Shown piece by piece: positions 17,128-30,170 of a stretch of 31,263 nucleotides of DNA; position 1 is the first letter of the stretch, and each line of letters begins with the position of its first letter. This DNA is from a virus (taxonomy: Duplodnaviria > Heunggongvirae > Uroviricota > Caudoviricetes). The stretch spans positions 1-31,263 of IMG/VR virus record IMGVR_UViG_2654587588_000015, one strand, 5' to 3'. A model generated the notes under the pieces. It worked only from the letters and a program-made list of their open reading frames with translations, was not told where the DNA came from and made no database searches. Position numbers and translations under genes: made by a program.

Positions 17128-18273
17128 ATGGCACAGGGCTTGCCTGTATCAAACGTTGTTAATGTTGATGTGATCATGTCGCCGCGTGCAGCATCAGGGC
17201 GAAATTTTGGTGCATTACTCATTCTCGGCCCGTCCACAATCATTCCGGTAAGTGAGCGCATTCGCCGTTATTCTGCCGCGGAAGATATTGGAAAAGATTT
17301 TGGCGTGGAATCACCAGAATATAAGGCTGCGCAGGTGTTTTTCTCTCAATCACCGAAACCTCAGGAGGTTTTTGTTGGTCGTTGGGTGAAAACGAAGGGA
17401 GACAGCGAACAGGCCACGCCTGAGACGCTGGAGCAGGCTGTGAATGCCATGCTTGATTATACTTCATGGTATGGGCTGGGGATTGCAGACGATGCAGATA
17501 TTCCGGATGCAGACTGGCTGAAAGTGGCTGCGGCGATCGAATCCTCTTCTGTAAGCCGTATTCTGGCGATTACGACAAGCGATGAGAAATGCCTGCAGAC
17601 TGCATCCAGCGATGATTTGGCATCAAAACTGAAAACCGCCGGATATTCACGCAGTTTTATTCAGTATTCATCGAGTAATAAATACGCTGCGTTATCTGCA
17701 TTTGGCCGGGCATTCACGGTTAATTTCAATGGCAGTAATACCGCGATTACGCTCAAGTTTAAGCAGGAGCCGGGCGTCGGGTATGAAACACTGACAGTCA
17801 GCCAGGCATCGGCACTTGATGCAAAAAACTGCAATGTATTCGTGTACTACCAGAATGATACGGCTATCCTCCAGCAGGGAGTGATGGCTAACGGCGATTT
17901 CTTTGATGAACGCCACGGCCTGGACTGGTTACAGAATTATGTGCAGACCAACCTCTATAACCTGCTTTATACCAGCACCACGAAAGTACCCCAGACTGAA
18001 GCCGGTATTACCCGACTGTTATCAAATGTTGAAAAATCACTGGATCAGGCCGTTCAGAATGGACTGATTGCTCCAGGCGTATGGAACGGTGGCGACCTGG
18101 GTCAGTTGTCATCAGGTGACACGCTGCCCAAAGGTTATTACGTATACGCCCAGCCACTGGATGAACAGGCACAATCAGAACGTGAAGCCCGTAAGGCTCC
18201 GGTGATTCAGGCTGCAATAAAACTTGCAGGCGCGGTTCATTACGCTGACGTACAGATTAACGTTGTTCGCTAA
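17128..18273 (+). CDS. Contractile tail sheath protein (DUF3383-like)
   Basis: 381 aa, GGAGA RBS, followed by tube and chaperone genes. Confidence 0.8.
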
Positions 18274-18283
18274 GGGGAAGTGA

Positions 18284-18724
18284 ATGTCTACCTATTCTTT
18301 TATGGATGTCACTGCGACGCTGACCGGGCCGACCGGTTCGATTGACCTCGGGTACGGTTCGGCAAGTTCTGAAGAGGGGATTGTGGTTGCGATGGGCGGT
18401 CCTAAAAACACCATGACCATCGGTGCTGATGGCGAAGTGATGCACAGTCTCCATGCAGATAAAAGCGGGACGATTACCGTTAACCTTCTGAAGACATCAC
18501 CGACAAATAAAAAATTGTCGCTGGCGTATAACGCACAGAGCCAGTCTTCTGCCACATGGGGGAATAACGTTATCGTGATCCGCAACAAGGTCAGCGGCGA
18601 CATCATCACGGCACGCAGTGTTGCGTTCCAGAAACAACCGGATAACGCCAACGCTAAAACCGGTAATACGATGCCGTGGGTGTTTGACTGCGGCAAGATT
18701 GACCAGGTTCTCGGGGAGTTTTAA
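18284..18724 (+). CDS. Tail tube protein
   Basis: 146 aa ORF directly after sheath. Confidence 0.7.
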   Translation: MSTYSFMDVTATLTGPTGSIDLGYGSASSEEGIVVAMGGPKNTMTIGADGEVMHSLHADKSGTITVNLLKTSPTNKKLSLAYNAQSQSSATWGNNVIVIRNKVSGDIITARSVAFQKQPDNANAKTGNTMPWVFDCGKIDQVLGEF

Positions 18725-18727
18725 TAC

Positions 18728-19180
18728 ATGGAATTCGAAATCAAAGGCGTGAAATATCGCGTGGCAAAACTCAGCGTTTTTGACCAGCTGAAAGTGACCC
18801 GCAAACTTCTGCCGGTACTGGCGGGAATGATGTCAGATTTCGGGAGCATTCGCTCCCGTTTGCCTGCTGACGGCAAAATCGACACCGTGAAATTCGAGCA
18901 GTTAAAACCGGTGTTTGAAACCATGCTCCCGCGTATCGCTGAGGAACTGTCTTCCCTGACCGAAGATGACACCGATGCGATTATTCATCCCTGTCTTGCG
19001 GTGGTGTCGCGGCGTCATATGGATGGATGGGTGCCGGTATTTACCCAGGGCGAACTGATGTTTGATGATATTGACTTGCTGGTCATGCTTCATCTGGTGG
19101 CGCGGGTGGTCGCCGATTCGCTGGGAAATTTTTTGCCTACACCCCTTACCAGCACGACACAGAGCCTGCAACAGGGCTGA
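18728..19180 (+). CDS. Tail assembly chaperone (zero-frame product)
   Basis: 150 aa ORF between tube and tape measure; contains T6 slippery run near its 3' end. Confidence 0.65.
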   Translation: MEFEIKGVKYRVAKLSVFDQLKVTRKLLPVLAGMMSDFGSIRSRLPADGKIDTVKFEQLKPVFETMLPRIAEELSSLTEDDTDAIIHPCLAVVSRRHMDGWVPVFTQGELMFDDIDLLVMLHLVARVVADSLGNFLPTPLTSTTQSLQQG

Positions 19181-19368
19181 CGTTTAACAGCCTGCCGGAC
19201 GGGCTGTCCTACCTTCTCAATCCGGTTGACGCCGGGTTAATTCCCTATACAGCACTTAAAGATGGCTCTGTCGATTTGTATGACATTGCTCTCTTGAATG
19301 ACCATCTGGCGGTAAAAGCGGATAACCAGCGGCGCATTGAGAAATGGAGAGAGGATAATGAACGCTGA
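19129..19368 (+). other. Candidate -1 programmed frameshift site (T_TTT_TTG) and 78-codon -1 frame extension of the chaperone
   Basis: -1 frame is open from 19075 to TGA 19366-19368; slippery heptamer at 19129-19135. Confidence 0.45.
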
Positions 19369-21343
19369 AACTATTAAAGATTTCCTCGTCTCGCTTGGCT
19401 TCAGTGTGGATGATGCAGGAGCGAAAAAGTTCGGTTCTGTCCTCGCCGGTACAACTGCAAATGTCATCAAAATGGGGCTGGCTGTTGAAGGAGCTGCGCT
19501 GTCCGTGGTGGCCTTCACGGCTAAGATCGCCTCCGGCCTGGATAATCTTTACTGGGCGTCACAGCGCACCGGCGCGACGGTCCAGGGAATTCAGTCTATT
19601 GGCTATGCGGTTTCGCAGGTTGGCGGCAGTGTGGACGCTGCGCGATCTTCTCTGGAAAGCCTCTCCCGGTTTATTCGTAACAATCCCGGAGCAGAAGGCT
19701 TTCTGAATCGCCTGGGCGTACAGACCCGTGATGCCAGCGGTAACATGCGTGACATGGCTGCTATCTTTACGGGCGTTGGACAGAAACTCAGCAGCATGCC
19801 GTATTACCGGGCTAACCAGTATGCGCAGATGCTGGGCATTGACGAAAATACCCTGATGGCTATGCGTCGCGGAGTGGGGCAGTTCAGCGCTCAGTATTCA
19901 GAAATGGTGAAAGCGATCGGATTTAATGCCGATCAGGCTGCCTTATCGTCAAACCGGTTTATGACCTCGCTGAAATCGCTCGGTGAAATGGCCGGGATGG
20001 CGCGGGACAAAATCGGATCGAATCTTGCGGACGGACTGGCGGGGCAGATTGATAACCTGCGCAAAAAGATAATTGAAAATTTTCCCAAAATTGAAGTCAC
20101 CATCACAAAGGTCATAAAGGGGATCCTCTGGCTGGGTGAGATAGTCGGGCGGGTAGCATTTCGGATAGTCGATGGTGTCGGAGATATCATCGAGTGGTGG
20201 GGGAAACTGGATGCCGAAACGAAAACCCTGATAGAGGTTATCGGCGGTCTGGTTGTCGCCATGCGGATACTTAACTCTACTTTCTGGATGTCACCTATAG
20301 GGCTGATTACCGGTCTGATCGTGGCTCTCGGTCTCTTGTGGGAAGACTACAAAACATGGAAAGAAGGCGGTAACAGTCTTATCGACTGGGAAAAATGGCA
20401 ACCGGCAATAGATAAAGCGAAGGATGCGATCACCTGGCTTCGTGATCACCTTCTGGAACTAAAAGATGGTGTTGGCGGCTGGCAAAATGCACTGGAAATC
20501 CTCGGTACATTCATCGCGGGTGTCTGGGTATCCAAGGTTCTGGGGGCTTTCGGGAAAATATCTGGTTTGCCGGTACCGCCATGGTTAAAAGGCTGGATGG
20601 CTTATGCTGCTTATTTGTACTCCGATCGCGAAAATATTGGTGCCAGTGCGAAGTCATCCTGGGATTACACGAAACAAAATATTGGAGATTCATTGCGCTG
20701 GCTTGGCATTGATACCGATTTTGGTCGTAATCCTCATACCGTAAAAGGCGCAAATATTCAGTCAGATATTCCAGGTGCTGAGCCGGAACAACATGCACAG
20801 GCTACGAAGCGAGGAGAACGGAATAACAATCCGGGAAACCTTAATTTTGCTGGTCAGGCGGGGGCTTCTCTTGAACGACCGGGCGGGCGATTTGCCAGAT
20901 TTGAAACTGCTTTTGATGGATTACGGGCTCTTGCTCGTCAGTTAATGCTGTACGCCGGACGGGGAATAAACAGTGTGGAGAAAATTATCTCTACCTGGGC
21001 ACCTGCGTCTGATAATAACAACACAACCGCGTATATCAGGGCTGTATCGCAACGACTGGGAGTGGATCCCCGGGCTGCCCTGAATATGAGCGATCCGCAA
21101 ACCATGTCAGCATTGATGAGCAGCATTATCCAGCATGAGAATGGAAGAAATATCTATTCTCGAGAGCTGATTAATAAGGCTGCCGTGGCGGGAATTAGTG
21201 GCAAAGTGACAGAGGTTAACCAGCAAAATACCTACCACATTTACGGTGGCGGAGATCCGCACGCTGTCGGTAATGAGGTTGCACGTCGGCAACAGTCTGC
21301 AAATGCTCAGGTCATGCGAAGTAATCAGGTGAGGGTGGGTTAG
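19358..21343 (+). CDS. Tail tape measure protein
   Basis: ATG 19358 with GGAGAGAGGA RBS; 662 aa with hydrophobic central segments; follows chaperone. Confidence 0.8.
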   Translation: MNAETIKDFLVSLGFSVDDAGAKKFGSVLAGTTANVIKMGLAVEGAALSVVAFTAKIASGLDNLYWASQRTGATVQGIQSIGYAVSQVGGSVDAARSSLESLSRFIRNNPGAEGFLNRLGVQTRDASGNMRDMAAIFTGVGQKLSSMPYYRANQYAQMLGIDENTLMAMRRGVGQFSAQYSEMVKAIGFNADQAALSSNRFMTSLKSLGEMAGMARDKIGSNLADGLAGQIDNLRKKIIENFPKIEVTITKVIKGILWLGEIVGRVAFRIVDGVGDIIEWWGKLDAETKTLIEVIGGLVVAMRILNSTFWMSPIGLITGLIVALGLLWEDYKTWKEGGNSLIDWEKWQPAIDKAKDAITWLRDHLLELKDGVGGWQNALEILGTFIAGVWVSKVLGAFGKISGLPVPPWLKGWMAYAAYLYSDRENIGASAKSSWDYTKQNIGDSLRWLGIDTDFGRNPHTVKGANIQSDIPGAEPEQHAQATKRGERNNNPGNLNFAGQAGASLERPGGRFARFETAFDGLRALARQLMLYAGRGINSVEKIISTWAPASDNNNTTAYIRAVSQRLGVDPRAALNMSDPQTMSALMSSIIQHENGRNIYSRELINKAAVAGISGKVTEVNQQNTYHIYGGGDPHAVGNEVARRQQSANAQVMRSNQVRVG

Positions 21344-22234: not shown

Positions 22235-23299
22235 ATGTCACAGAACTGGATGAGACATTTCGAGCTGCAGCTTGTGGACGGGAACGGTCAGGGAATTGAG
22301 CTAAGTGATTTTAAAGTCACCTTTACGATCGACTGGTTCAACATCAGCAGCGCGTCCCGGGTAGGGACTATCAAAATTTATAACCTCTCGGCAGATACTG
22401 TGAACCGAATCACCGGGCAGGAGTTTTCGAAAGTGCGTCTGATTGCCGGTTACGACGGTATCGCGCCGGAGGTGTCGGCAAGCGACGTCGGGACCGTGCG
22501 GGAAGTTGACGCGGCGGACGTGGGTCAGAGTGATGGCCGCAACTACGGACTGATTTTCAGCGGTGAAATTCGCTACTCGGTCACAGGAAAAGACAGTCCG
22601 GTTGATTCCTACGTCCTGATTCAGGCAGCAGATACTGATCTGGCTTTTGCCACCAGTATAACCTCACAGACGCTGGCTGCCGGTTACACGGTCGCTGATG
22701 TAAACCGTGCGCTGATGAAAGACTTCGAAGCCAAAGGCGCGACCGAAGGCCTGACGCCTGAAATGCCTGCTACTGTATTCCCCCGGGGGCGGGTACTCTT
22801 TGGCATGACGCGGCATCTAATGGATAACGTAGCCGGGCAATGTGGCGCAACATGGCAATTCGTGGACGGTCAGCGCCAGATGGTGGCGAATAACGAATAT
22901 GTTCATGAAGCGATTGTGCTCAACAGCGCTACCGGGCTTATTGGCATGCCGCAGCAGACTATCGGTAACGGCGTAAACGTCCGCGCGCTTATTAATCCGA
23001 ACATCCGGGTTAACGGACTCATTCAGCTGGATCAGGCTTCCGTGTATCGTACCGCCTTGTCGAACAACGATATTGCGATGGCTGGTGGTCAGATCACCGA
23101 CCAGAACACGGATGGAAATATCACGCTAAGCGGCACCACATCGCAGCCTGCCAGCATCGCAACGGATGGCGTTTATATTGTGCGCGGTATAATGTACACT
23201 GGCGACACAAGGGGCCAGGCGTGGTACATGGATATGATGTGCTTTGCTCGAGGTGCTAGTGATATTCCTAGCCAGTCAGCGATGAATCGAGGTGCATAA
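22235..23299 (+). CDS. Baseplate hub / late-control-D-like protein (354 aa)
   Basis: Position after tape measure and small tail genes. Confidence 0.55.
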   Translation: MSQNWMRHFELQLVDGNGQGIELSDFKVTFTIDWFNISSASRVGTIKIYNLSADTVNRITGQEFSKVRLIAGYDGIAPEVSASDVGTVREVDAADVGQSDGRNYGLIFSGEIRYSVTGKDSPVDSYVLIQAADTDLAFATSITSQTLAAGYTVADVNRALMKDFEAKGATEGLTPEMPATVFPRGRVLFGMTRHLMDNVAGQCGATWQFVDGQRQMVANNEYVHEAIVLNSATGLIGMPQQTIGNGVNVRALINPNIRVNGLIQLDQASVYRTALSNNDIAMAGGQITDQNTDGNITLSGTTSQPASIATDGVYIVRGIMYTGDTRGQAWYMDMMCFARGASDIPSQSAMNRGA

Positions 23300-23301
23300 T
23301 A

Positions 23302-24027
23302 GTGAGCAGGCTTGCGATAACCACAATCGTATTTTCTCTTTTTTTAACTTCATGTAGTTGGGATCCTAATGGTGCTAAAGCGCAGGAAAAATGGCTATCC
23401 CAAAAAAATGAAGAAAAACAAGCGTACGATAAGCAAGTTGAGGAGAGCCAGAAAAGCAGGCTTCAAATACAGCGCGAAGAAAAGTCTCAATTTGAAGTTT
23501 CACATCCAGAGGTTATCGTTGCTGGTGTTGGGAACGAGCTTAAAAGTAAGGGTGCAGAATCTTTGCGAGATGCGTACAACAGCATTCCATTCGTAACTCG
23601 TTATCCGGGAACCACGGACCCTAACAAAGTTTATACCTATGTCGGTGACTACAAATTAAATTTGCAACTGGTTAACACATCTGTGCTTTCTCAGATCTCA
23701 GATTGCAAACGCATTTCAGCGTATGCCGATGTTGATATTAATCGTACTTGCTTCAATCAAATTGGAAATGATTTGAGTTTGTTTGCATCTGTAATTAAAG
23801 ACAAAAATATTACTGGAATTGCCAAAAAAGCAGCTCTACGAGATTCAACTTACGGAACCAAAATTGATTTTGGTCATGCTGCGCGTTTAGCAAAAATGCA
23901 TGCCACTTTATGCCAAAAGCAGGGCGGTAAAGGATTTGTCAAAATGTCGACTGTAGCTGTGCCTTGCGGCTCTTCAGGCGATGTAATTAACTATCGAAGC
24001 GCCGGTAAGATGGGGCTTATAAACTGA
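23302..24027 (+). CDS. AT-rich lipoprotein (241 aa) inserted in the baseplate operon
   Basis: GTG 23302 with GAGGTG RBS; signal peptide plus lipobox LTSC; low GC versus flanks; own terminator downstream. Confidence 0.65.
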   Translation: MSRLAITTIVFSLFLTSCSWDPNGAKAQEKWLSQKNEEKQAYDKQVEESQKSRLQIQREEKSQFEVSHPEVIVAGVGNELKSKGAESLRDAYNSIPFVTRYPGTTDPNKVYTYVGDYKLNLQLVNTSVLSQISDCKRISAYADVDINRTCFNQIGNDLSLFASVIKDKNITGIAKKAALRDSTYGTKIDFGHAARLAKMHATLCQKQGGKGFVKMSTVAVPCGSSGDVINYRSAGKMGLIN

Positions 24028-24092: not shown

Positions 24093-24845
24093 ATGGCAGT
24101 ATCTGACCAGACCCGCAGCGGCGACTTTGCCGAAACATTCAAATCTGAACGGGAAACAACAAAGAACCAGATCCGTGTCGCCTTGCCTGGCATTATTCAG
24201 TCATTCGATCCTGATGCGGTTACGGCAGTTGTGCAGCCTGCTATACGTTCGGTTGAAAAGGATAATGACGGCAACCGCATTACCCAAAATTACCCATTGC
24301 TGGTGGATGTGCCAGTGGTATTCCCGCGCGGCGGAGGCTGTACGTTGACTTTTCCGGTAAAAGCCAGGGATGAGTGTCTTGTCGTTTTTGCCGATCGTTG
24401 TATTGATTTCTGGTGGCAGAACGGCGGGATACAGGAGCCTGTTGATGACAGAATGCATGATTTATCGGATGCGTTTTGTATTGTCGGTCCCCAGTCGCAG
24501 GCGAGGAAGATTAGCGGTATTAATACCAGTGCCACACAGTTGCGTAGTGACGACGGCAGCACCTATTTTGAGCTTAATCCTGACACCAGGAAAATTAAAA
24601 TTGTCGCTCCGGGTGGTCTTGATGTGGTTGCCCCTCTGGCTGATTTTTCTGAGAAAGTAACCATTCATGGCCTGTTAACCTGGATGGGTGGCATGGTGGG
24701 GTCTGTTGTTTCTGGTGTGGCTTCAAAAATCACTGGTGCTGTTGAGTTCTTGGGGAGCGTTAAGGCTAACGGCAAGCCAATCGATGATACGCACACTCAT
24801 GGCGGTGTTCAGCGCGGTGGAAGCAATACCGATGGGGTAAACTGA
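24093..24845 (+). CDS. Baseplate central spike protein (Gp138-N / gpV-like)
   Basis: N-terminal region (PLLVDVPVVFPRGGG...DRCIDFWW...HDLSDA) matches recalled Gp138_N pattern. Confidence 0.7.
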   Translation: MAVSDQTRSGDFAETFKSERETTKNQIRVALPGIIQSFDPDAVTAVVQPAIRSVEKDNDGNRITQNYPLLVDVPVVFPRGGGCTLTFPVKARDECLVVFADRCIDFWWQNGGIQEPVDDRMHDLSDAFCIVGPQSQARKISGINTSATQLRSDDGSTYFELNPDTRKIKIVAPGGLDVVAPLADFSEKVTIHGLLTWMGGMVGSVVSGVASKITGAVEFLGSVKANGKPIDDTHTHGGVQRGGSNTDGVN

Positions 24846-26397: not shown

Positions 26398-27074
26398 GCA
26401 AATACACCGAACTAATCACGAACTACCACGCCACCAAACCTAAATTTCTTGCACATGTTGATCTGATGACCCGGCCGCTTATTGATGTTGCGGCGGCCAC
26501 CAGAGGGCTGATTACTGCATTTGATATTGACTCTGCGGTTGGTGTGCAACTTGACATTCTGGGATTGTGGATCGGACGTAGCCGTGTTGTCAGCCAGCCT
26601 ATCTCAGGTGTCTATTTCAGCTGGGATACCGACGGGCTTGGATATGATCAGGGGGTATGGCAGGGACCATACGATCCTGATTCCGGATACATGTACCTCA
26701 GCGATGAAACTTATCGTGTCATTCTTAAAGCGAAGATTGCGATTAATAACTGGGATGGACGGAATGATTCGCTTCCGGCAATTCTTGACGCGGCAACAGC
26801 AGGATCCGGGCTGCGAATGCAGATAGTCGATAACCAGGACATGACGATATCGGTCTGGGTCTTTCCTGATACTGATATTTCAGATGTATCGCGTGAGTTA
26901 ATTGCGGCAATTAAACAGGGGTATCTCACAGTAAAAGCCGCCGGGGTATGGGCGGGTGGCATTGAAACACCTTCGGTGGAAACCCCATCGGAAGGCTCAA
27001 AATTTTTTGGTTTTGATATGGATAACGAATTCATCAGTGGTTTTGATGTAGGAGCATGGGGAGTATTACTCTGA
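26394..27074 (+). CDS. Baseplate/tail protein, DUF2612 (e14 YmfQ-like)
   Basis: 226 aa ORF immediately upstream of the tail fibre gene. Confidence 0.55.
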   Translation: MSKYTELITNYHATKPKFLAHVDLMTRPLIDVAAATRGLITAFDIDSAVGVQLDILGLWIGRSRVVSQPISGVYFSWDTDGLGYDQGVWQGPYDPDSGYMYLSDETYRVILKAKIAINNWDGRNDSLPAILDAATAGSGLRMQIVDNQDMTISVWVFPDTDISDVSRELIAAIKQGYLTVKAAGVWAGGIETPSVETPSEGSKFFGFDMDNEFISGFDVGAWGVLL

Positions 27075-27721
27075 TGGCGAAAAATGACTTTAAAGCGTTT
27101 GCAACGGATCGAAATGCCAATGTTATATCGCAGGAGGAATGGGAAGCGTTGCCCGCGCTTTTATCCGGATTTACAGCAGGGAAAGCCTCCAGTGCGCAAG
27201 TCAATAAGGTTATTCGGCAGGCCAGCTTTATTGCTGCAGCTCTGGCCCAGTTTGTAAGTGATAAAACGCAACGGGATGTGCTTGATAATGGTGATCTGCC
27301 CGGTTTTGTTGAATTGCTGGGATCGGGGTTTGCTGTTGAATACCTGAGCCGCAAGAATCCGTTTGGCGATATCAAATCGGATGGCACTGTGCAAACGGCT
27401 CTCGAAAACCTTGGTTTAAGAGCAAGCGGGCAGTACACCGATAATTTGTTATTTACAGGTCCTGATGGTCTTAAGATTCAGGTGTTTCGCCGGACGCTCG
27501 CAAATTTGACTACTGTCGGTGTAGTAAATTCTGTGCCAGTGACTTTCCCTGTCCCGTTCCCTGTTAATTGCTGGGGCGTTTTTTCTACCAAATTAACATG
27601 GGTTCAGATAACTAACTCATGCGAGTGGGTAAGCAATACAGGATTTACCGCTCAGGTCATGATGAATATTGCTGTAAATACAAACACCTCAGACGCTATG
27701 TTTTTAGCTATAGGATATTAA
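27056..27721 (+). CDS. Tail fibre protein (constant N-terminal part plus currently expressed variable C-terminal part)
   Basis: Typical fibre N-terminus MAKNDFKAFATDRNANVISQEEWEA; crossover site lies inside the gene. Confidence 0.75.
   Translation: MGSITLMAKNDFKAFATDRNANVISQEEWEALPALLSGFTAGKASSAQVNKVIRQASFIAAALAQFVSDKTQRDVLDNGDLPGFVELLGSGFAVEYLSRKNPFGDIKSDGTVQTALENLGLRASGQYTDNLLFTGPDGLKIQVFRRTLANLTTVGVVNSVPVTFPVPFPVNCWGVFSTKLTWVQITNSCEWVSNTGFTAQVMMNIAVNTNTSDAMFLAIGY
27399..27424. repeat. Invertase crossover site (gix/pix-like), left boundary of invertible segment
   Basis: CTCTCGAAAACC-TT-GGTTTAAGAGCA; inverted copy of the site at 29232-29257. Confidence 0.55.
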
Positions 27722-27722
27722 T

Positions 27723-28163
27723 ATGAATCGTTTTGTGTTCAGTCCATCTGAGTCCCGTTTTTATGCCATCGAGTGGCAGGCTGATTATGTTGATAATAAT
27801 TGTTGGCCGCATGATGCCATTAACGTTAGTGACAGCATTTATTATGAGTTTTCCGGCGCTCCCCCTACAGGTAAGCAACTTATAACTTTAAATAACATGC
27901 CATCATGGGGTGATATTCCTCCACCTACACGAGAAGAATTAATTGTCGCTGCTGATGTGGAGAAGCAAAAAAGAATAGATTTAGCCAATGATTACATGAA
28001 CGGTAAGCAATGGCCTGGTAAAGCAGCTATTGGTCGTCTGAAAGGTGAGGAACTGGCACAATATAATTTGTGGCTGGATTATCTGGACGCACTGGAGCTG
28101 GTCGATACTTCCGGTGCGCCAGATATTGAATGGCCTACGCCTCCGGCAGTTCAGGCCAGATGA
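27723..28163 (+). CDS. Tail fibre assembly protein
   Basis: Tfa-like N-terminus; C-terminal motif LDYLDAL...DTSGAPDIEWP shared with the minus-strand paralogue. Confidence 0.8.
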   Translation: MNRFVFSPSESRFYAIEWQADYVDNNCWPHDAINVSDSIYYEFSGAPPTGKQLITLNNMPSWGDIPPPTREELIVAADVEKQKRIDLANDYMNGKQWPGKAAIGRLKGEELAQYNLWLDYLDALELVDTSGAPDIEWPTPPAVQAR

Positions 28164-28740
28164 CGTCCGGCGCTGTGCTGGTATCTGTTGCCGTCACCGC
28201 GTCAATGTAATCCAGCACAGCGTTAAGCCGGGTTGTTTCTGCCTGCGTCAGCTTCCGCCCGGCCTGTAATTTCAGTTGAATCAGACTAATGGAAGCCATT
28301 GCAGCATCAATCAGTGACTGACGCTGTGCTTCTGCCGCTTCGACTGCTGCGCTATGCTGTGCCTCAGTATCGGTCACCCATTTCTCACCATCCCATTTAT
28401 CGTATGGCGTTAATGGAGCGATAGTGGTTGTATTTTCAGGGTAATCACCCGGAGCTGTGATTTCTTTTGATTCTCCTGTTTCAGTGCTATAGACCGTTTC
28501 ACCGCGATGGTCTGGCACATATTCCCATGAGTTAAAATCTGCAGAACGGCAAATTGCATAACCAGCTTTATATGAGCCAGGAGCATCTAAACAGGAACAT
28601 GCCGGGATACCGACACCCACAGCAAGATATTCAGTTGATGTGGAAATATATTCCCGTGTCTCACCATCATAATTGTAAACGGTAATGTCTCCCGCCTTTG
28701 TGGTGATGAGTTCGCTATTTAATACAGCTTTATTCATCAT
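28135..28740 (-). CDS. Alternative tail fibre assembly protein (inverted orientation)
   Basis: C-terminal motif LDYIDAV...DTSTAPDVIWP; convergent with the plus-strand tfa. Confidence 0.8.
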   Translation of the reverse strand: MMNKAVLNSELITTKAGDITVYNYDGETREYISTSTEYLAVGVGIPACSCLDAPGSYKAGYAICRSADFNSWEYVPDHRGETVYSTETGESKEITAPGDYPENTTTIAPLTPYDKWDGEKWVTDTEAQHSAAVEAAEAQRQSLIDAAMASISLIQLKLQAGRKLTQAETTRLNAVLDYIDAVTATDTSTAPDVIWPELPEA

Positions 28741-29244
28741 GCGGCCCTTACGATATAATTAAAAGCGATGTTACGAGGACGAGTTTCTGTACCTACATTT
28801 TCACTAATTTCACCATAACGTTTAACACTACGAGAGCTAGTAGCTCGTAGTGAGGAAGGCACATTAAGACCGGGTTCGTCCGTTTTAACTATTCCCCCGT
28901 CACCGTATGTAGCCAGTATTCCTGGGTTTACTCCTTCCCGTGCACTTCCTGCGGCGAGTCCGTCCCCTGTCCATAATTCCATATAGTGTGCATGGTCCAA
29001 AATTGTGTGTGGCTGCCAATTAAGCAAAGCGCGACCAGTATCAATCCCGCGACCGTCATCCCAGCCACGAATAAATTCACCGCGTAAATCAGGCAATTTA
29101 TTGGTCGGGTAAGCCTTTGCCAGTTCCGGGTATTCTTCAGCAGAAAAAGCCGCACCGTTGCATTTCAGCCAGCCTGTTGGCGGTGTGACTGAAGGCCACG
29201 GAACAGGCACACCAACAGGTAATGCAGAACCTTCTCCCAAACCA
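28737..29244 (-). CDS. Alternative tail fibre C-terminal cassette, silent in this orientation
   Basis: Open frame runs from crossover site 2 on the minus strand; in-phase with the fibre constant part after inversion. Confidence 0.65.
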
Positions 29245-29257
29245 ACGTTTATGAAAA
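29232..29257. repeat. Invertase crossover site (gix/pix-like), right boundary of invertible segment
   Basis: TTCTCCCAAACC-AA-CGTTTATGAAAA, resembles recalled gix/hix consensus. Confidence 0.55.
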
Positions 29258-29311
29258 TGCAGAAATAACGAGCAAATGGCATCATTCCTGCTTTTGTCAG
29301 GGAGATCTACC

Positions 29312-29866
29312 ATGCTTATTGGCTATGTACGTGTGTCAACAAATGACCAGAACACAGATCTACAACGTAATGCGCTGAACTGTGCAGGATGCGAGCTGAT
29401 TTTTGAAGACAAGATAAGCGGTACAAAGTCCGAAAGGCCGGGACTGAAAAAACTGCTCAGGACATTATCGGCAGGTGACACTCTGGTTGTCTGGAAGCTG
29501 GATCGGCTGGGGCGTAGTATGCGGCATCTGGTCATTCTGGTTGAGGAGTTGCGCGAACGTGGCGTTAATTTTCGCAGCCTGACGGATGCTATTGATACCA
29601 GCACACCGATGGGGCGTTTTTTCTTTCATGTGATGGGTGCCCTGGCTGAAATGGAACGAGAACTGATTGTTGAACGAACAAAAGCTGGACTGGAGGCTGC
29701 TCGCGCACAGGGACGAATTGGCGGTCGCCGTCCCAAACTTTCACCAGAACAATGGGCGCAGTCCGGGCGACTAATTGCATCAGGAGTTCCTCGCCAGAAG
29801 GTGGCGATCATTTATGATGTTGGCGTATCGACTTTGTATAAGAAGTTTCCAGTCGGAGATAAATGA
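29312..29866 (+). CDS. pin: Serine DNA invertase (Pin/Gin/Hin/Cin family)
   Basis: MLIGYVRVSTNDQ N-terminus with catalytic Ser region and C-terminal HTH; track ORF begins at an upstream in-frame ATG at 29276. Confidence 0.9.
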   Translation: MLIGYVRVSTNDQNTDLQRNALNCAGCELIFEDKISGTKSERPGLKKLLRTLSAGDTLVVWKLDRLGRSMRHLVILVEELRERGVNFRSLTDAIDTSTPMGRFFFHVMGALAEMERELIVERTKAGLEAARAQGRIGGRRPKLSPEQWAQSGRLIASGVPRQKVAIIYDVGVSTLYKKFPVGDK

Positions 29867-30170
29867 AACCGTAGCACGTCGTATGCAAGAACGTGCCACG
29901 GCTGGCTGATGGACGTTCGATAGCGCGAGTTTGAGTGAAAATCAGCCTGAGGTGATTTTACATAATTGTTGCAGAATCATTCAATATAGGGATTGCTTAT
30001 TTCTGCCTGGATTGGTCTGAAATAGTCCCGAAATTTTCTCTAAAAAACTCGAAAAAAATGGTAACTAATTGAATGCATTAATATGCAATGGTACGTGTTT
30101 GGGATTAAAAGATGAGCGTAATTTTGCTTAACACATTAATTTAAAAAGGGTTTCTTGTTTGTTGACGAAA

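Follow-up and report, generated by a model that had tools for sequence, protein, structure and literature searches.

Conserved frameshifting of tail assembly chaperones, of the G/GT type, is said to have been described by Xu, Hendrix & Duda in 2004, and the frameshift that yields P2 gpE / gpE+E′ was reportedly treated both in that work and by Christie et al. in 2002. The P2 case (NC_001895) concerns a myovirus chaperone whose gene is flanked by the tube gene (FII) and the tape measure gene (T), as in the locus studied here.

Among long-tailed phages, frameshifting of the G/GT type has been widely conserved (PMC5009743). In lambda, the short form gpG is produced in excess over gpGT, the virion contains neither of them, and the extension binds the tube protein (PMC5009743). 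In the Pakpunavirus chaperone locus, a conserved −1 shift at a poly-T close to the 3′ end of the chaperone gene was inferred by comparison (PMC12846349, 2025). In Klebsiella phage Mulock (MN098327), a direct homologue of our locus, CPT_Mulock_014 and CPT_Mulock_015 are annotated as 'tape measure chaperone' and 'tape measure chaperone frameshift product', the latter as a joined CDS. The Mulock annotation is bioinformatic, and the genome announcement contains no mention of the frameshift.

Here we analyze the chaperone locus of a Caudoviricetes genome (IMG/VR record IMGVR_UViG_2654587588_000015, positions 1 to 31,263), and this whole stretch of 31,263 nt is called the window. Based on the comparison of sequences, we consider it highly likely that a −1 ribosomal frameshift at T_TTT_TTG produces a short and a long tail chaperone from one start codon.

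Gene order and frames at the chaperone locus

The window corresponds to the structural module of a temperate myovirus that is SEN34-like (Brunovirus-related). Its segment 18284-19700 has 100% identity with a prophage of E. coli A37, and among 5426 complete E. coli genomes 316 (~6%) carry related copies, which also occur in many other Enterobacterales. According to the Pfam and phrog matches, the genes follow the order sheath, tube, chaperone, −1 extension, tape measure and baseplate genes. The features considered here are the following:

17128-18273, + strand: tail sheath gene (Pfam DUF3383, 6e-101; phrog_205 tail sheath)
18284-18724, + strand: tail tube gene (Pfam KPP10_Orf10, 9e-61; alternative labels Phage_Tube_PhiTE / DUF3277)
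18728-19180, + strand: tail assembly chaperone, short zero-frame form of 150 aa and 16.8 kDa (Pfam Phage_TAC_15; phrog_1688, 6e-65)
19104-19110, + strand: Shine-Dalgarno-like (SD-like) GGGTGGT, candidate upstream stimulator (best anti-SD complementarity from −120 to +60 of the slip site)
19123-19135, + strand: slippery run G_GGA_AAT_TTT_TTG, with three overlapping in-phase X_XXY_YYZ heptamers (from the sequence; identical in 58/70 relatives)
19129-19135, + strand: core heptamer T_TTT_TTG (in phase in 70/70 relatives)
19135-19368, + strand: −1-frame extension, 77 codons plus TGA (coding-type entropy, no conserved start codon)
19243-19359, + strand: DUF6889 domain, C-terminus of the extension (Pfam PF21829, 2e-20; phrog_4364)
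19358-21343, + strand: tape measure protein gene, with the C-terminal part lytic transglycosylase-like (phrog_2276, 1e-265)

The chaperone matches Pfam Phage_TAC_15 (PF21822) along residues 6-138 with 107.8 bits (gathering threshold 22, E = 7e-31), and PGAP gives it the product name 'phage tail assembly chaperone'. By analogy, the short form is regarded as the counterpart of lambda gpG and P2 gpE, and the product of the tube gene (18284-18724) is the presumed partner of the long form. The chaperone/extension pair sits between the tube gene and the tape measure gene, as expected for the G/GT type. An earlier note on this DNA had proposed a chaperone-extension arrangement upstream of the tape measure gene, which is supported by the gene order, by the matches to Phage_TAC_15 and DUF6889, and by 70 relatives.

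In the zero frame, the chaperone ORF goes from the ATG at 18728 to the TGA at 19178-19180 (150 aa). Stops at 19072 and 19366 leave the −1 frame open from 19075 to 19365. Its final TGA (19366-19368) overlaps the tape measure gene, which starts with the ATG at 19358, by 11 nt, and the overlap between the −1 ORF and the 3′ end of the chaperone gene is 103 nt. The coordinates given by the earlier note for the chaperone end (19180), for the −1 frame open from 19075 to the TGA at 19366-19368 and for the overlap with the tape measure gene were all confirmed, and its fusion of ~210 aa corresponds to a computed length of 213 aa. Open −1 frames past stop codons are common in the window, a tightly packed operon, since the next gene is often in that frame; therefore, this geometry is by itself weak evidence.

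A shift at T_TTT_TTG would give a fusion of 213 aa and 24.0 kDa, against 150 aa and 16.8 kDa of the short form. The long form would be composed of the N-terminal 136 residues common to both forms and an extension of 77 residues. The junction peptides predicted for the fusion are …SLGNFLAYTPYQ… or …SLGNFFAYTPYQ…, depending on the heptamer used: a slip on the last heptamer would produce …LGNFL|AYTPYQ…, and a slip on either of the earlier ones …LGNF|FAYTPYQ…. In other words, the junction …VVADSLGNFLAYTPYQHDTEPATGLTFNSLPDGLSYLLNPVDAGLIPYTALK is predicted for T_TTT_TTG, and …GNFFAYTP… for A_AAT_TTT or G_GGA_AAT.

Two other regions of the window deserve a record. A 241-aa ORF occupies 23302-24027 (+ strand), wedged in after the baseplate hub gene (22235-23299) and before the spike gene (24093-24845). 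It encodes a signal peptide of the lipoprotein type and a lipobox (MSRLAITTIVFSLFLTSC), gave no Pfam match, and has a GC content of 37-42%, while the flanks have ~54%. The ORF has the look of a moron or cargo gene acquired horizontally by the tail module. The region ~27050-29870 contains two opposed sets of a tail-fibre C-terminus and a Caudo_TAP assembly gene, at 27056-28163 (+ strand) and 28135-29285 (− strand), and beyond them a serine invertase gene at 29276-29866 (Resolvase 1e-51 plus HTH_7). Sites similar to hix/gix were found at 27406 (AAACCTTGGTTT) and 29239 (AAACCAACGTTT), and the whole looks like an invertible host-range segment of the Mu G / P1 C type.

The slippery run and its conservation

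The zero-frame codons across the site are CTG GGA AAT TTT TTG CCT, with T_TTT_TTG in the X_XXY_YYZ phase. The run GGGAAATTTTTTG, a 13-mer found once in the window, contains G_GGA_AAT (19123), A_AAT_TTT (19126) and T_TTT_TTG (19129), all in phase. The earlier note had indicated T_TTT_TTG as the only homopolymeric slippery candidate in the overlap of the frames. As a slip site it stands, being family-wide in 70/70 relatives, but it is not the only candidate, since G_GGA_AAT and A_AAT_TTT are also in phase. The same note had considered the final G atypical, a reservation that does not hold, because the annotated −1 site of P2 E/E+E′ is the same in-phase GGT_TTT_TTG (PMC3091744).

The three heptamers belong to different classes in E. 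coli reporters. A_AAU_UUU is within the R_RR.U_UU.Y and H_HH.U_UU.Y motifs, which are among the efficient shifters, and G_GGA_AAU falls outside the efficient V_VV.A_AA.R class (PMC4066793). U_UUU_UUG is less efficient than the best heptamers, its UUG having been described as a 'heterogeneous' A-site codon that shifts less readily than UUU or UUC (PMC4066793).

Relatives were obtained from 12 phage and E. coli records and from 65 loci in bacterial assemblies with one genome per species. From these, 70 were usable, covering phage records and 61 bacterial species, with chaperone protein identities varying from 46 to 85%. An in-phase T_TTT_TTN was found in 70/70 relatives (64 with TTTTTTG, 5 with TTTTTTT, and 1 with TTTTTTC), and the full 13-mer G_GGA_AAT_TTT_TTG is identical in 58 of the 70. 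In five relatives (L130, L144, L149, L150 and L151), GGGAAAT and AAATTTT were lost, leaving T_TTT_TTN as the sole heptamer. In two of these, L144 and L150, a TAA or TGA of the −1 frame directly abuts T_TTT_TTN on its 5′ side and, therefore, no shift would be possible further upstream there. The comparative data suggest that T_TTT_TTN is necessary and, in five lineages, sufficient, and we take the T_TTT_TTG at 19129-19135 as the family-wide slip site.

The codon-level analysis comprised 68 distinct fusion sequences. The synonymous entropy is 0 at the codons AAT of Asn134 (n=64), TTT of Phe135 (n=68) and TTG of Leu136 (n=62), and about 1-1.5 bits at the remaining Phe, Asn and Leu codons of the chaperone gene. 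The conservation of phase is weaker evidence than this choice of codons, since a conserved Asn-Phe-Leu alone would hold the phase. As far as homologous chaperone pairs are concerned, the comparison favors the shift that the earlier note had proposed, with the slip heptamer in 70/70 and a −1 extension of near-constant length in 68/70 relatives.

The −1 extension as a coding sequence

The last 40 codons of the −1 ORF match the full 40-position model of DUF6889 (PF21829) with 72.6 bits, for a cut-off of 23.9. NCBIfam has no model that matches the small ORF or the fusion. In 68 of 70 relatives, the −1 frame continues for 182-197 nt past the zero-frame stop, the exceptions being L123 (68 nt) and L133 (725 nt), and in most relatives it closes on or just past a tape measure ATG. 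The +1 frame of the relatives generally stops within 7-25 nt.

The mean entropies at codon positions 1/2/3 of the −1 frame are 0.85/0.76/1.37 along the 14 codons from the slip to the zero-frame stop, and 0.76/0.59/1.41 beyond that stop. The chaperone body in its own frame has a signature matching that of the −1 frame (0.82/0.54/1.44). The residues P140, P157, G159, G180, D183, L184 and W207 of the −1 frame are invariant; the first one is only four codons past the slip, while P157 and G159 are upstream of the commonest ATG. In the window, the −1 ORF has no ATG or GTG, and its sole canonical start is a TTG at 19276, within the Pfam domain. In 30 of the 68 relatives, the stretch that leads from the slip site to the DUF6889 domain is devoid of start codons (ATG, GTG or TTG), and no start for the −1 ORF is positionally conserved. 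Judging by these patterns of constraint, the −1 ORF is a real coding sequence. The coding signature from the slip onward, together with the data on start codons, therefore fits an entry into the −1 frame at the heptamer and not an independent initiation. An AlphaFold2 model of the fusion P0001, built from a mixed alignment of chaperones and DUF6889 fragments, was unusable (mean pLDDT 43, pTM 0.28).

Some copies depart from the general pattern. L013 (Logan SRR23924998, 1896-1909), a relative with 97% identity, has T7 in place of T6, which puts the chaperone and DUF6889 in a single ORF of 213 aa (P0001) with the junction …GNFFAYTP…; the extra T is a sequencing error in the homopolymer, or else a natural mutation that makes the fusion constitutive. 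In the chaperone homologue P0066 (NCBI, 159 aa), the slip codons are followed by …SLGNFCPNSLPARRR…, which resembles the +1 frame and would be explained by T5 in place of T6 or by an error in this homopolymer. The sequences L072-L078 (IMG/VR) were considered as possible variants in the length of the T-run and rejected, all of them having T6 with a divergent zero-frame tail; their chaperone match ends at residue 136. In L101 (Apirhabdus apintestini, CP138906), the chaperone ORF is broken after 47 codons. The oddities of L101, L123 and L133 are probably the result of decaying prophage copies or of fusion with the tape measure frame.

Stimulatory elements

A downstream stimulatory RNA structure, which the earlier note had suggested looking for, did not emerge as a conserved feature from the 68 relatives folded, from RNAalifold on 24 of them, or from the fold of the window itself. 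In the 70 nt located 3′ of the heptamer, the mean MFE z-score of the 68 relatives is −0.15 (dinucleotide shuffles), and the RNAalifold consensus of 24 diverse relatives has −0.38 kcal/mol with 0 compensatory/covarying pairs. The window's own downstream fold has z = −0.78, which is not significant, and no conserved hairpin or pseudoknot of the dnaX / IS911 type was found 5-9 nt past the heptamer. P2 and its relatives were likewise reported without a downstream structure (PMC3091744).

On the upstream side, the candidate GGGTGGT has an anti-SD energy ≤ −5 kcal/mol in 85% of the 68 relatives and coincides with conserved Arg-Val-Val codons, so that its conservation may be a mere consequence of these codons. 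The spacers from GGGTGGT to the three heptamers are 12, 15 and 18 nt, the 18 nt corresponding to the core heptamer, for a published range of 6-17 nt (PMC4066793). A different observation concerns the ~20 nt upstream of the run (GTGGCGCGGGTGGTCGCCGA, within 19081-19122), identical even at synonymous sites in L001-L012, which are phages with 65-70% identity overall. This identity could be caused by an SD-like stimulator, by a small GGCG…CGCC hairpin or by recent recombination. As a family-wide conserved element, GTGGCGCGGGTGGTCGCCGA was rejected, given that the wider species set keeps only the SD-like GGTG core and the slip codons.

Alternative explanations

Public annotation treats the locus as two separate genes, in which the DUF6889 ORF would be translated from its own start (CTG 19204 here) without any frameshift. 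RefSeq/PGAP makes nt 19204-19368 a gene of its own, with a CTG start and the product 'DUF6889 family protein' (54 aa), several phage records call this piece as ORFs of 50-63 aa, and an ATG is aligned with fusion residue 164 in 28 of the 68 relatives. However, such an origin is difficult to reconcile with a −1 ORF devoid of ATG/GTG in the window, with the 30/68 relatives that have no start at all before the domain, and with the absence of any positionally conserved one. Coding constraint begins at the slip site, and the invariant P140, P157 and G159 precede any candidate start. Besides, the annotated lengths are inconsistent, varying from 43 to 78 aa, and two genes would leave the frozen slip codons unexplained. 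We consider this explanation extremely unlikely. Even less credible, to the point of being practically negligible, is a non-functional relic, that is, a decaying or chance open −1 frame next to an incidental T-run. Such open frames are indeed common after stops in the window and a stimulatory structure was not found, but the ORF was kept with near-constant length in 68/70 relatives, under purifying selection similar to that of a gene and with many invariant residues. The Pfam match at 72.6 bits and the frozen slip codons also argue against a relic.

The same fusion would arise by transcriptional slippage if the RNA polymerase added an extra U on the T6 and the edited mRNA were translated. The conserved element is a homopolymer (T6, or T7 in 5 relatives), the insertion of one T is enough to yield an in-frame fusion, as in L013/P0001, and the sequence alone does not tell a slip of the polymerase from one of the ribosome. 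Nevertheless, the runs on which bacterial polymerases are documented to slip efficiently have ~9 A or T, in keeping with the RNA:DNA hybrid of 9-10 bp (PMC5009743), while the run here is T6 in 147 loci and T7 in 5, never longer and below the threshold of ~9. The T-run is always in the X_XXY_YYZ phase, and the GGGAAA that supplies two more ribosomal heptamers is conserved in most relatives, although a polymerase would not need it. The identical site of P2 was annotated and described as translational (PMC3091744). Transcriptional slippage is, in our view, very unlikely.

Proposed mechanism

In the −1 ribosomal frameshift that we favor, the majority of ribosomes would translate 18728-19180 and end with the 150-aa chaperone. 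A minority would slip back by one base on T_TTT_TTG while the P site holds tRNA-Phe, paired with UUU, and the A site tRNA-Leu, paired with UUG. These ribosomes would then read 19135-19365 in the −1 frame, producing the 213-aa protein that ends in DUF6889. A_AAT_TTT, and perhaps G_GGA_AAT, could add slips in the same direction in the window and in most relatives. A downstream RNA structure would not be needed, and some help may come from the GGGTGGT located 12-18 nt upstream. If lambda G/GT and P2 E/E+E′ are taken as a guide, the common N-terminal part would coat the tape measure protein, and the extension would recruit the tube protein, with the tube polymerizing at a fixed short:long ratio. 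We infer the occurrence of the shift, its efficiency, the heptamer or heptamers used and the functions of the proteins.

A more elaborate version would take G_GGA_AAT_TTT_TTG as a tandem, structure-free cassette in which two or three heptamers each add −1 events, aided by the upstream anti-SD interaction. It is possible, but we find it rather doubtful. If it were true, the long:short ratio would be higher or more robust than that obtained from a single heptamer, two junction isoforms would be expected (…GNFF-A… and …GNFL-A…), and the relatives with T_TTT_TTN alone would have a lower long:short ratio.

Consequences for annotation

In public records, the extension appears as a free-standing protein (P0122-P0148) of 43-78 aa, often named 'NTP pyrophosphohydrolase'. 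A literature search for DUF6889 and Phage_TAC_15 found no paper. By analogy with the known systems, DUF6889 is to be seen as the frameshift-encoded C-terminal domain of the Phage_TAC_15 chaperones and as the counterpart of lambda T and P2 E′. This would give a role to a domain of unknown function, and the correction of annotation would reach thousands of records. The feature is very probably real and mechanistically ordinary, a textbook arrangement that is usually mis-annotated as two genes. It is biologically expected and answers no open question; the benefit lies chiefly in better annotation. It is also a further natural case, and a well-sampled one, of a U_UUU_UUG shift site without downstream structure.

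Comparison with known systems

Lambda is a siphovirus that slips on G_GGA_AAG, whereas the conserved core in our family is the U-run. The G_GGA_AAT found here ends in T and is a poor A-site shifter in E. coli. Another case is that of TAC-N / TAC-NC in Pakpunavirus / Vandenendeviridae (Pseudomonas phage Adele), which belongs to the same tail lineage, with a DUF3383/E217-type sheath and a KPP10-type tube (PMC12846349). The downstream ORF is routinely mis-annotated there as a hypothetical gene (PMC12846349), and a comparable mis-annotation occurs here. The two differ in the motif, which is GTTTTT instead of a full heptamer run, and in the phages, which are virulent and infect Pseudomonas (PMC12846349).

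P2 offers the nearest case with experimental grounding. In P2, RefSeq marks the −1 site right after the in-phase GGT_TTT_TTG, and there is no downstream hairpin (PMC3091744), the same as observed here. The P2 extension ends 8 nt inside gene T; in P2 as in our locus, the extension runs a few nt into the tape measure gene and has a small Pfam domain at its C-terminus. On the other hand, the families are different (Phage_TAC_7 + Phage_P2_GpE in P2, Phage_TAC_15 + DUF6889 here), P2 does not have the extra GGGAAA heptamers, and its proteins, of 91 and 142 aa, are the smaller ones. An experimental demonstration exists for the P2 shift, while ours is predicted from sequence comparison. Homology between the fusion and P2 E+E′ was considered and rejected (hhalign probability 0.5%), the resemblance being architectural.

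The homologous locus of Mulock belongs to another phage and host, and its zero-frame form has 142 aa instead of the 150 aa found here. An exact look-up of the two fusion sequences that its annotated join could give found neither of them in the collection searched. The two loci share ~69% nt identity and 58-62% aa identity, with the same gene order. Mulock has an identical GGGAAATTTTTTG in the same phase, and the end of its −1 extension overlaps the start of the tape measure gene.
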